Shown here piece after piece: positions 9,001-12,000 of a DNA stretch of 35,817 bases; positions within the stretch are counted from its first letter, which is position 1, and every line of letters starts with the position of its first letter. The stretch comes from a virus. Taxonomy: Duplodnaviria; Heunggongvirae; Uroviricota; Caudoviricetes. The position numbers were made by a program. Location: positions 1 to 35,817 of IMG/VR virus record IMGVR_UViG_2703718836_000012; one strand, written 5' to 3'.

Positions 9001-12000
9001 CGTAAACTTCTGGACTAAAACGAATGTTCATCATTAGTTAATTTCCTTACGGTGTTGGTCATAACGGGCGAGAGCGTCAGCGAACATTTTCATTCGGTCT
9101 GTATACTCCCTCGATTTTGCTGCTTGCATGGATGCGTAAATAACGTGGCGTTTCACCTTACCACTCACCAGATCATTAAAAACCTGGTCACTACTGAAAT
9201 ACTTCAATAACTACCTCCTTCGGATTTTGGATGCAAAAAGCCCCAGGCAGTTACCCCGCCCAGGGCTGAAAAGTTCAGAAGGTTTTCTCCCCTTCATACT
9301 TACCATAATACACTATTTTAATAACGTTTGTCAACCACCTACCATAAAATAAATTTGTCGTCAACAATTTTTTCATAATAGGATAAGACGGCTTCTCAAG
9401 GAAGGGTATCATTTCCGGCTCTTCATGCGAGTGAGCCGATCTTGTAGCTACGCTACATCGCACAATGAACCTGTTAACACATCATTTTAATGATAAGCCC
9501 TTTTACATAATTTTGATGTGTTGAGATCGTAGGCTCACAATGAACCAGCGATCAGCGGGTGAATGTCGCATGAAAAAGTATCTGCTCATGCTCATCCTGC
9601 ACAAAGATGTATGTTCGAGGAATACGAGAACATAAGAGAGATAATTAATAACCTTAGTTTAATTAAGGGTAGTTAGTAGTTGGTTTGTGTCAGTGAGCGA
9701 AGCGAGCATGACAAATTATCTCTACAGGAAAATTTCTTCTCAACAATACTTTTCTGTAGAAGTCACTTTCATGCGCGTGATCAGCGCATACCAAATTGTA
9801 CAGTCCACTTTATGGAGAATTAACCCTCCATCAATCCTGATTACGTGTTAATAGCGAATACTCGCCTCCATAGCGCCGGAAAAATCCCACGCTAATTACA
9901 TTCTAAATACCCGCTAAACCCCAGGTAAAGCGATGCTTAATCTATTCTAAATAACCCGCCTGTAACGCCCTCTGAGCGCCTTTCTCACTTTCAAAGTATC
10001 TTTCATCACTTATACGAAAGCCTTACGCCGTGCGGCTCACAGCGATCATTGTCCACAATGAGCACTTTTATGATAGGTGCAATTTGCTTAAAGACTTTTT
10101 ATGTTTTATCAAATTTATTTGAATATCGATTTTCCATGCCCAAACCCGCCAGTTGGTTAGCATTCTAATCATTTCATCATGCAATCAGTTGCAAGTGCAT
10201 AAACTCCGCATAATCTGTGCATACAGGCAGGTTAGCGCCGCCCTCGCCTAACGGCTCTACATTTATCACCATTAAATCAATGAGATAGATAAAAACCACA
10301 CACAAGCATTGGTAGTGTGATGTTCCGCTGTTGCCGCTGTTCTTCGTGAAGAGTTGAGGATTTGGCAACGTTCAAACAGATGTTTAGACTTTTCAACATT
10401 ATGATTTTGCTAAGATATTTCCAGTTTGTGCGAATTTCGAACAGGAGAATGTGCTTGTTCGCGCTGAACCCTGGACACAATCGCGCCATCTACCACACAC
10501 AACACCGATTATTTTTTGATCATTTGTCTTGCAACTCACTGAAATTGATCATAATGTTTATTTCATTGGTTTAGATGTGTGACCTTGAAGGAGGGTAAAT
10601 TGAACAGAGCAGTGGTGTTAGACGAACAGCAAGCTAAAGCGATCAGGGAATGGCTAAACGCTCATAACAAAAGCCTGATAGCTGACGTTACGTTAATGAT
10701 GCAAGCCGCCGTATTGCGTGTGGGGGATGCCGTAGCTTTGCGCTTCGACGAAGTGATTAACGGAGAGATAGACATAGAAGAACAGAAGACTGGGAAGCGT
10801 AAAGCCCTCACCCTTCCGGCTCCAGTGGTGCAGATGATCGCTCGTCGCCGTGCTGAGTATCCGCATGATGTGCATGTGTTCAGAAGCCAGCGTAACCGAT
10901 CAATGAACAAGCAAGCGCCTGTACGACGCGAAGAAGTGAGCAAGCAGATCGCAGAGGCCGCTAAAGCTATCGGTATTCATGGCACTGTATCGGCTCACAG
11001 TTTCCGCAAAGCTGGCGGGAATGCCATCTACAAGCGTTCAGCAAACAACATCGCTTTAGCTATGACCGTGCTTAATCACAGCAACATCACTGACACCAGG
11101 CGCTATCTGGACTTAGACAAGCAAGCCGTTAGCCGGATTATCAATGAAATGGATTTATGAGAATCGAACACTCAATTTGCAGACACTACAGTACCAAGCG
11201 TTTTGACCCCTCGTGACAGCAAACTGTTGCATGTGTCTTTTGATATTGCTTGTTTCATAACAATGAGGACAAAATGGTACTTCATCTCCAGCTTTCCAAT
11301 AAACATTATCCTTGAAGATAAATGTCGATTTATCTTTCAGCTGATCTTCAAGCTGCTTATTTTTCTGTTCCGCGTCGAAAAGTAGAGTTTGTGTTGTTAT
11401 CGCTTCAATCTTGGCGTTAGCAAGTTCGACCATTAGATTGGCTAACTCAAGTTTGAGCGTAGCCTTGTCCAGTTCATCGCTGTTATTTGCCAGCTTCTGA
11501 GTGATGCTTACCGCTTTATCAAGAATCCCTATAGCTGCCGCCGTGCTTGCCAATACTCCTGCCATAACCTCTCCTACGTACGTATCGATTCGAAGAATAT
11601 GTTACTGCCGATTCCCTGCGCATACCAGTGTGGAGAAGATACCACAAGGATTCGCACACCACCTTCATCACATCACAATCAGAATCCACTTAAAATTCTT
11701 GAAATTATGTTTTAACATTGCAGGCGCTTCTAAATAAAACAATCATTCAGGATGATTTATATTCGTAAAGGTTTATTGGTGTTAGTGGCTTCAACTCTGC
11801 TTCTCTCTGGGTGTGCTGTACAGAAACAACTGGTTCCAACTGGTGGTAGCAAGGCTGATGGGACTGTAAAAATGAGCTACTCTTTCGGGATGTTCGAATC
11901 CCCTAAAGTGAACGTTCAGCAAGGCGCTCAAGCAGCAGCACAACGTTGCGCTGCATGGGGCTATTCTGGTGCTGAGCCTTTCGGTGGTTCAACTTCTGTT

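Follow-up and report, generated by a model that had tools for sequence, protein, structure and literature searches.

Tyrosine recombinases that consist of a catalytic domain only are known mainly as phase-variation invertases, FimB and FimE being examples. In the Cre/loxP system of phage P1 and the TnpI/IRS system of Tn4430 the recombinase gene lies beside its own site, and TnpI makes use of direct-repeat accessory motifs; both Cre and TnpI carry a core-binding domain. The promoter region of P1 cre contains GATC sites and is a precedent for a Dam-regulated recombinase promoter. Short integrase-like proteins also occur in phages as a 'second integrase', the role of which has been described as unclear (PMC3335513), and the recombinases of plasmid prophages are believed to resolve dimers (PMC8026635). 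Here we describe the gene of a short tyrosine recombinase in the virus record IMGVR_UViG_2703718836_000012 (Caudoviricetes), which was analysed over its whole length of 35,817 nucleotides (nt) and is referred to below as the window. The product is an intact tyrosine recombinase under selection, and the gene together with the DNA upstream of it is a self-contained, optional module of a capsid-encoding island integrated at thrW. Catalytic-only tyrosine recombinases are already known, and what is new is this uncharacterised member. We tentatively propose that the module works as the Cre/lox, TnpI/IRS or Xer/cer systems do, by recombining one site of the island once it has excised as a circle.

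An open reading frame (ORF) of 193 amino acids (aa) with a GTG start was found at 10579-11160 on the plus strand, where an earlier note on this DNA had placed a catalytic-domain-only recombinase of FimB/FimE size. The true start is probably TTG 10600, which gives 186 aa, because a GGAGG motif precedes it by 5 nt and because RefSeq has the start at the equivalent codon in the E. coli XYEH3934 locus (99.9% identical); the label already present in RefSeq, 'tyrosine-type recombinase/integrase', is generic. The protein matches Pfam PF00589 (Phage_integrase) over residues 13-182 (model positions 2-171/172, E=4.3e-16), and its score of 59.6 bits against a gathering cut-off of 27.1 places it in the tyrosine recombinase superfamily. 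PF00589 was the sole domain in a Pfam scan of the 193-aa protein, with neither a core-binding nor an arm-binding domain, and the single-domain AlphaFold2 (AF2) model is confident (pLDDT 91, pTM 0.87), disorder being confined to residues 1-8 of the 193-aa form. The size and the absence of N-terminal DNA-binding domains claimed in that note are thereby borne out. The catalytic His/Arg/Tyr motifs are in place as well: in the numbering of the 193-aa form, R47, K70/K73, H140, R143, H167 and Y176 do not vary across 17 aligned sequences reaching down to 25% identity, none of them is mutated, and the set is complete with the R-K-H-R-H pentad and the tyrosine nucleophile. From its sequence, the recombinase is predicted to be catalytically active.

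Shortness was observed to be native to the family. All 26 non-fragment homologues in a collection of 5.8 billion proteins are 185-199 aa long and share a common start position, and homologues down to 25% identity all fall within 180-200 aa. A profile search of 1.84 billion representatives returned 456 clusters (50% identity) at E<=1e-30, the top 150 of which are nearly all 177-205 aa long; no characterised member of this clade is apparent in the literature consulted. Among eight genes of the closest subfamily, with nucleotide identities of 90-96%, dN/dS is 0.02-0.09, so that selection on the recombinase is strongly purifying.

FimB and FimE share with the window protein the catalytic-only architecture, a length of about 190-200 aa and the full catalytic set, and in hhalign comparisons they are colinear with it from the N-terminus at probabilities of 95.5% and 97.6% (FimE 97.6%, residues 5-173). 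However, identity is only about 21-23% (about 21% for FimE), and the window protein gives no match at E<=1 to NF007370 or NF007371, for which FimB and FimE score 458 and 452 bits against cut-offs of 221 and 222. The window gene is also found in a phage-satellite-like island and not beside a fimbrial operon. The protein thus has the FimB/FimE architecture but lies outside the FimB/FimE family. Its best sequence and structure matches are to the catalytic domain of Xer proteins (XerA, XerC/D, XerH). Foldseek paired the AF2 model only with the catalytic domains of XerH, XerA, IntI4, lambda Int and Cre, and in a profile search of PDB sequences XerA was best (7e-18) and Cre weak. NCBIfam gave weak catalytic-domain matches to XerA, XerD and XerC only, all far under their cut-offs (42.8 bits at best, against 220 for XerA). 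Unlike the Xer proteins, the window protein has no core-binding domain, and no dif-like 11-6-11 site was found for it. It differs from the integrases of phages and integrative and conjugative elements in having neither arm-binding nor core-binding domains and in the location of its gene, which is 1.7 kb from the att repeat and not beside it.

The recombinase gene is accompanied by conserved non-coding DNA of about 470-600 bp, and this unit is retained while replication genes and cargo vary in islands of eight enterobacterial genera. On the left, homology between loci breaks off at ~10005-10030 or at ~10126-10138; on the right it ends at the stop codon or up to 240 nt beyond. The island recombinases form three subfamilies with about 95-100%, 63-66% and 43-48% identity to the window protein. 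The upstream elements were defined by phylogenetic footprinting and are listed with the other features in Table 1. The TGCATA array, which is preceded by TGCAAT (10180) and TGCAAG (10190), occurs once in the 35.8-kb window. Each of the three subfamilies has it ahead of the recombinase gene (at -404, -271 and -449), and 25 of the 32 distinct upstream sequences contain it; L129, a related island without the recombinase, lacks it. The dyad nearest to its left, a candidate core site by its sequence, is kept in subfamily 1, in the Leclercia type and in locus L011, and not in L010 or L012. Blocks C-D (10230-10340) have a sequence particular to each recombinase subfamily, and among viral contigs the exact block C sequence occurs in these islands only; a role for block C as recombinase site or packaging site is purely hypothetical. 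Locus L009 is a mosaic: its blocks C-D go with its subfamily-2 enzyme, and blocks F-G, which lie between the two, are those of subfamily 1. This hints at a pairing of blocks C-D with the enzyme. As in Cre/loxP and TnpI/IRS, a conserved cis region with phased direct repeats beside dyads lies directly upstream of the gene; unlike in those systems, the crossover site is only putative and the similarity of the enzyme extends no further than the catalytic fold.

Block A is not linked to the gene in every locus, since some left breakpoints fall at ~10126-10138; the centre of its palindrome is GG and not CC in L002 and in the Leclercia loci L125 and L127, with the orientation of the arms unchanged. 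Block E reads as a promoter of the form TTGGCA-N17-TAGACT, with TATAAA in relatives. A 29-nt core of this block (ATTTGGCAACGTTCAAACA..TGTTTAGA, window 10360-10388) has matches in 357 E. coli genomes, and the sole one inspected, E2865 (L129), holds a related thrW island with capsid genes and no short recombinase. Since the core occurs in a recombinase-less island, block E is not solely the recombinase's own target, and its candidacy as that target is weakened. The same island has a 3-kb gene-free gap at 6951-9913, where six copies of CTGTGTAAT, possibly iterons, are found. Block G, which on the strength of its motifs would act as the promoter, is kept in all three subfamilies and is bracketed by GATC at 10518-10521 and 10547-10550; GATC is present at -53 in 31 and at -82 in 30 of the 32 distinct upstream sequences. 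Relatives such as L007, L152 and L157 have up to seven GATC within 250 nt upstream, where about one is expected and the window has two. In phage metagenome contigs that stop close to the gene, the ends were considered as termini and rejected, as their scattered positions fit assembly breaks at mosaic boundaries.

Relatives of the recombinase were found in 186 phage records (Streptococcus 111, Clostridium/Clostridioides 32, Bacillus 20) and on 281 plasmids, 166 of which are non-mobilisable. Uncharacterised short 'second integrases', such as those of Streptococcus Javan phages and Bacillus phages and gp53 of C. difficile phiCD38-2, belong to the same family, with 26-30% identity. They are encoded by temperate Firmicutes phages and plasmid prophages, where their genes close the early region and have a long non-coding gap or packaging genes next to them. 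They differ from the window gene in their hosts and in the terminase and HNH genes that follow them, which the island does not have. In a pneumococcal prophage the short recombinase stands directly ahead of HNH, terS, terL, portal, protease and capsid genes, and in Javan371 a gap of 660 nt separates it from the terminase genes downstream. The relative lies about 1-1.7 kb from the right genome end in C. difficile phages and 1 kb from it in the plasmid-prophage phiCD38-2. A 20.7-kb circular phage-like plasmid of E. coli, pRHB39-C22_4 (L169), has at 2258-4988 a 1.6-kb gene-free gap, a short recombinase of 30% identity and an HNH gene, the same gene order as in Streptococcus cos-type prophages.

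Other relatives, of the same family and length, are placed within inverted repeats. Inverted repeats of 31 nt enclose the recombinase gene (195 aa) in L038-L040, where the arms match at 30/31 positions and a csrA-flagellin operon is the direct neighbour; in L033/L034 (Gastranaerophilales) the enclosing 31-nt repeats are perfect (31/31). These arrangements make both sets of cassettes probable self-inverting switches. Each arm of the cassette repeats is an 11-6-11-like dyad. No such 31-nt repeats bracket the genes of the enterobacterial islands.

Our proposal, which is tentative and in which we place limited confidence, is that of a single-site recombination module. The enzyme would perform conservative site-specific recombination at one site in its own upstream region. 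The 11-bp-phased TGCATA repeats would be bound as accessory sites, and crossover would take place at one of two neighbouring dyads, 10155-10170 or 10230-10252, as the core. The substrate would be the excised, replicating circular island, and the reaction would interconvert monomers and multimers without inverting a promoter; such single-site dimer resolution would be shared with the Xer systems. Expression would start from the conserved promoter with its two GATC (Dam) sites and be sensitive to Dam methylation. We infer this target site, reaction type and Dam control against the background of an intact and natively short enzyme, an optional module with its repeats and the absence of inversion signals. 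The TGCATA array accompanies all three subfamilies (100/66/44%) despite its shifts in position, and blocks C-D change along with the recombinase subfamily. The lack of a conserved inverted-repeat pair and of orientation variants in about 55 loci is consistent with a single-copy site. In addition, the nearest sequences are of Xer type, relatives occur on plasmids and on the plasmid-prophage phiCD38-2, and the island has a replication module with a DEAD-box helicase.

Several observations weigh against single-site recombination. No convincing 11-6/8-11 core site is common to all three subfamilies, and of the dyads at 10046-10061, 10155-10170, 10230-10252 and 10362-10398 none has a 6-8-bp spacer in all three. 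The best-conserved dyad, that of block E, is also present in the recombinase-less island, and block A is separable from the gene. Related islands exist that do without the module (one of the 357 block E genomes having been inspected), so the recombinase function is dispensable, and elements packaged from concatemers have no obvious need for dimer resolution. Moreover, two distant family members are clear invertible cassettes, which puts inversion within the repertoire of the family.

The earlier note had seen in the gene either a truncated integrase remnant or an active invertase whose target was the repeat region beside it. The small size and the location in an island that already holds another integrase would suit a decayed 3' remnant of a full-length integrase, but the natively short family, the strong purifying selection and the confident single-domain model speak against it, and nothing of a lost N-terminus was found upstream: the 600 nt 5' of the gene have stops in all three forward frames, and a tblastn search of 9000-11200 with the N-termini of four full-length integrases and with FimB and FimE gave no traces. 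An alignment, proposed in that note as a check on native shortness, points the same way, with homologues all short and colinearity with FimE from the N-terminus. The recombinase is not a broken integrase, and as a remnant it is refuted, with next to no probability left for that reading. A Fim-like invertase would flip an adjacent promoter segment, or act on a target in trans as RecV of C. difficile does, and so give phase variation; we consider this quite unlikely. The catalytic-only architecture and the colinear alignment common to FimB and FimE speak for it, as do the distant relatives inside 31-nt inverted-repeat cassettes and an 8-14-nt inverted repeat of the window, GTTGCAAG (10188-10195) / CTTGCAAC (10528-10535), which brackets 332 bp ending at the -35 hexamer. 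That repeat is not conserved, however: other subfamily-1 loci have GTTTCAAG, GTTCCAAG or ATTTTAAG as its left arm. The repeats beside the gene are in direct orientation (3 x 11 bp) and not inverted, and among 14 loci there is no position-conserved inverted-repeat pair of at least 7 nt; inverted repeats in single loci vary from locus to locus, and the candidates 10551/11283, 10590/12713 and 10182/10528 are absent or altered in other loci. None of 37 metagenome loci contains an inverted segment (sensitive blastn, word size 7, 9950-11420) and none of about 20 genome loci an inverted piece (default blastn, window 1-13600), all alignments being colinear on the plus strand; counted over genomes, viral contigs and metagenomes, all of the roughly 55 related loci are colinear. 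With no score against the FimB and FimE models either, the invertase reading is unsupported, within the limit that these tests would miss sites that are very short or lie far off, and targets acted on in trans. What stands of the earlier interpretation is the short architecture, with which the colinearity with FimE agrees, and the intact catalytic residues; the remnant is refuted and the adjacent-repeat invertase unsupported.

Unlikely as well, in our judgement, is a role linked to packaging, in which the enzyme would act near cos or pac and fuse monomer circles, or resolve branched or multimeric DNA, for the terminase of a helper phage. The position of the relatives suggests it, immediately ahead of HNH-terS-terL-portal in Streptococcus prophages, close to the right genome end in C. 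difficile phages and between a gap and HNH on the 20.7-kb E. coli plasmid. The island, too, encodes a lambda-E-like capsid protein and no terminase, so it must present a packaging signal, and the conserved non-coding DNA is the obvious location. The minus strand of block C contains GGGCGGCG, which we take to match the lambda cohesive end over its first 8 nt, but an 8-mer match of this type is weak, with a chance expectation of about 2% in 600 bp. Further, the upstream DNA at 9950-10600 is shared by no phage in 50,697 records (blastn), and exact-pattern scans found blocks C and E in no viral contigs beyond the islands, so that no helper cos was matched; positional association alone is also no mechanism. 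The broader idea that short catalytic-only recombinases have a widespread function at the packaging junction, from Firmicutes cos/HNH phages to enterobacterial capsid-encoding satellites, and recombine a site beside cos or pac, is doubtful to a like degree. If it were true, these enzymes would fuse or resolve circular replication products into packageable substrates, and the 0.5-kb region of the island would be both site and packaging signal. We regard as improbable a function directed at cargo or helper, by which the recombinase would target a helper or competing phage, or swap cargo at the variable end in the manner of an integron. It would agree with the optional nature of the module, which a related island does without, with its position at the head of the variable cargo region, with the exact end of homology at the stop codon in comparisons with several loci, and with a PADLOC candidate defence protein, PDC-S67, in the cargo of a relative. 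Against it, no repeated site was found around the cargo, the 12-nt inverted repeat (10590/12713) being limited to near-identical loci; the recombinase itself has no PADLOC match; and most loci stay homologous for 70-240 nt past the stop codon, into a small secreted-protein gene.

The clade recurs at one location in temperate phages, plasmid prophages and the satellite-like island family. Establishing the reaction would give a function to the common annotation 'second integrase' and would clarify how a capsid-encoding, terminase-less island is processed for transfer. Two things make this worth an experiment: the clade is consistently placed at the packaging junction of phages and satellites, and in a capsid-encoding island it is linked to conserved cis DNA. 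For annotation, a short integrase-like ORF should not be taken by default for a pseudogene, nor for an invertase.

The island itself spans 12.9 kb (window 1-12884), and the recombinase is located between its replication genes and its variable cargo. The real integrase of the island is the full-length protein encoded at its left end (Table 1). Terminase, portal and protease genes were not found in the island, which looks like a capsid-encoding phage satellite with no obvious fit to P4, PICI, cfPICI or PLE. In E. coli XYEH3934, thrW holds the same island at 13.4 kb, and islands with matching gene order are present in other E. coli and in Citrobacter, Pseudenterobacter, Buttiauxella, Kluyvera, Phytobacter, Enterobacter and Leclercia.

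Table 1. Features of the window around the short recombinase gene, with the cassette relatives in other loci
Feature	Coordinates	Strand	Remarks
Full-length island integrase	1..1215	+	404 aa; DUF6538, SAM-like and catalytic domains (domain assignment)
Tape-measure/TolA-like protein	1868-3739	-	623 aa
Lambda gpE-type major capsid protein	4045-5076	-	
Small ORFs	5093-7048	-	
DEAD-box helicase	7456-8940	-	
Stretch of ~1.4 kb without credible genes	about 9210-10580		
Portable recombinase module	10005..11160	+	conserved non-coding DNA and gene
Block A palindrome	10046..10061	+	TCATTGT-CC-ACAATGA
Dyad (candidate core site)	10155..10170	+	GGTTAG-CATT-CTAATC; in relatives AATTGATTAG-CATT-CTAATCATTT, 9/10 symmetric
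Three 11-bp-phased direct repeats (TGCATA array)	10196..10223	+	TGCATAAACTC / CGCATAATCTG / TGCATA; TRF
Block C dyad	10230..10252	+	GGTTAG-N12-CTAAC (GGTTAGCGCCGCCCTCGCCTAAC); subfamily 1 only, other sequences in the 66% and 44% subfamilies
Block E near-palindrome	10362..10398	+	TTGGCAACGTTCAAACA-GA-TGTTTAGACTTTTCAACA; also reads as sigma-70-like promoter
Promoter-like block G	10518..10556	+	TTGCAA (10529-10534), 15-16-nt spacer, CATAAT/ATAATG (10550-10556)
GGAGG ribosome-binding site	10590..10594	+	kept in subfamily-1 loci
Short tyrosine recombinase, catalytic domain only (coding sequence)	10600..11160	+	186 aa from TTG 10600 (probable start); alternative GTG 10579, 193 aa
Cargo	after 11160		
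Att-like repeat closing the 12.9-kb island	12869..12884	.	ATGGTGCAGATAATAG
Second att copy	13370-13385		start of the 3' 46 nt of tRNA-Thr (thrW), 13370-13416
Recombinases in inverted-repeat cassettes	L038 7793-8877; L034 9835-10488; L033 2159-2812		28-34% identity

At the thrW junction lies the 3' 46-nt fragment of tRNA-Thr, and no intact tRNA was detected by ARAGORN. Beyond this fragment follow gtrA, gtrB and a third gtr-like ORF (13618-16132) and then tail genes. The gtr-bearing element is a prophage of serotype-converting type in tandem with the island at thrW, and a helper candidate. Known RNA families were found neither in 9000-11300 nor in the whole window.

Downstream of the recombinase, a convergent ORF of 136 aa (11155-11565, minus strand) overlaps its stop codon by 6 nt; the ORF product (phrog_1244, function unknown) begins with a coiled coil and ends in a zinc ribbon, CxxC...CxxC. 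In most related loci a small secreted-protein gene, 8-11 nt past the recombinase stop, takes its place. In L002, an island remnant near tRNA-Gly, a cargo protein (16562-17164, minus strand) matches the PADLOC candidate family PDC-S67 (E=3.7e-27), which suggests that the region past the recombinase is a defence or accessory hotspot. Among the small ORFs on the other side of the island, one of 119 aa (5093-5452) occupies the gpD position ahead of the major capsid gene. The non-coding stretches at 7015-7158 and 6256-6354 are 88-95% identical in L010 and L011 despite diverged flanking genes, and are probably conserved regulatory junctions between the operons of the island.

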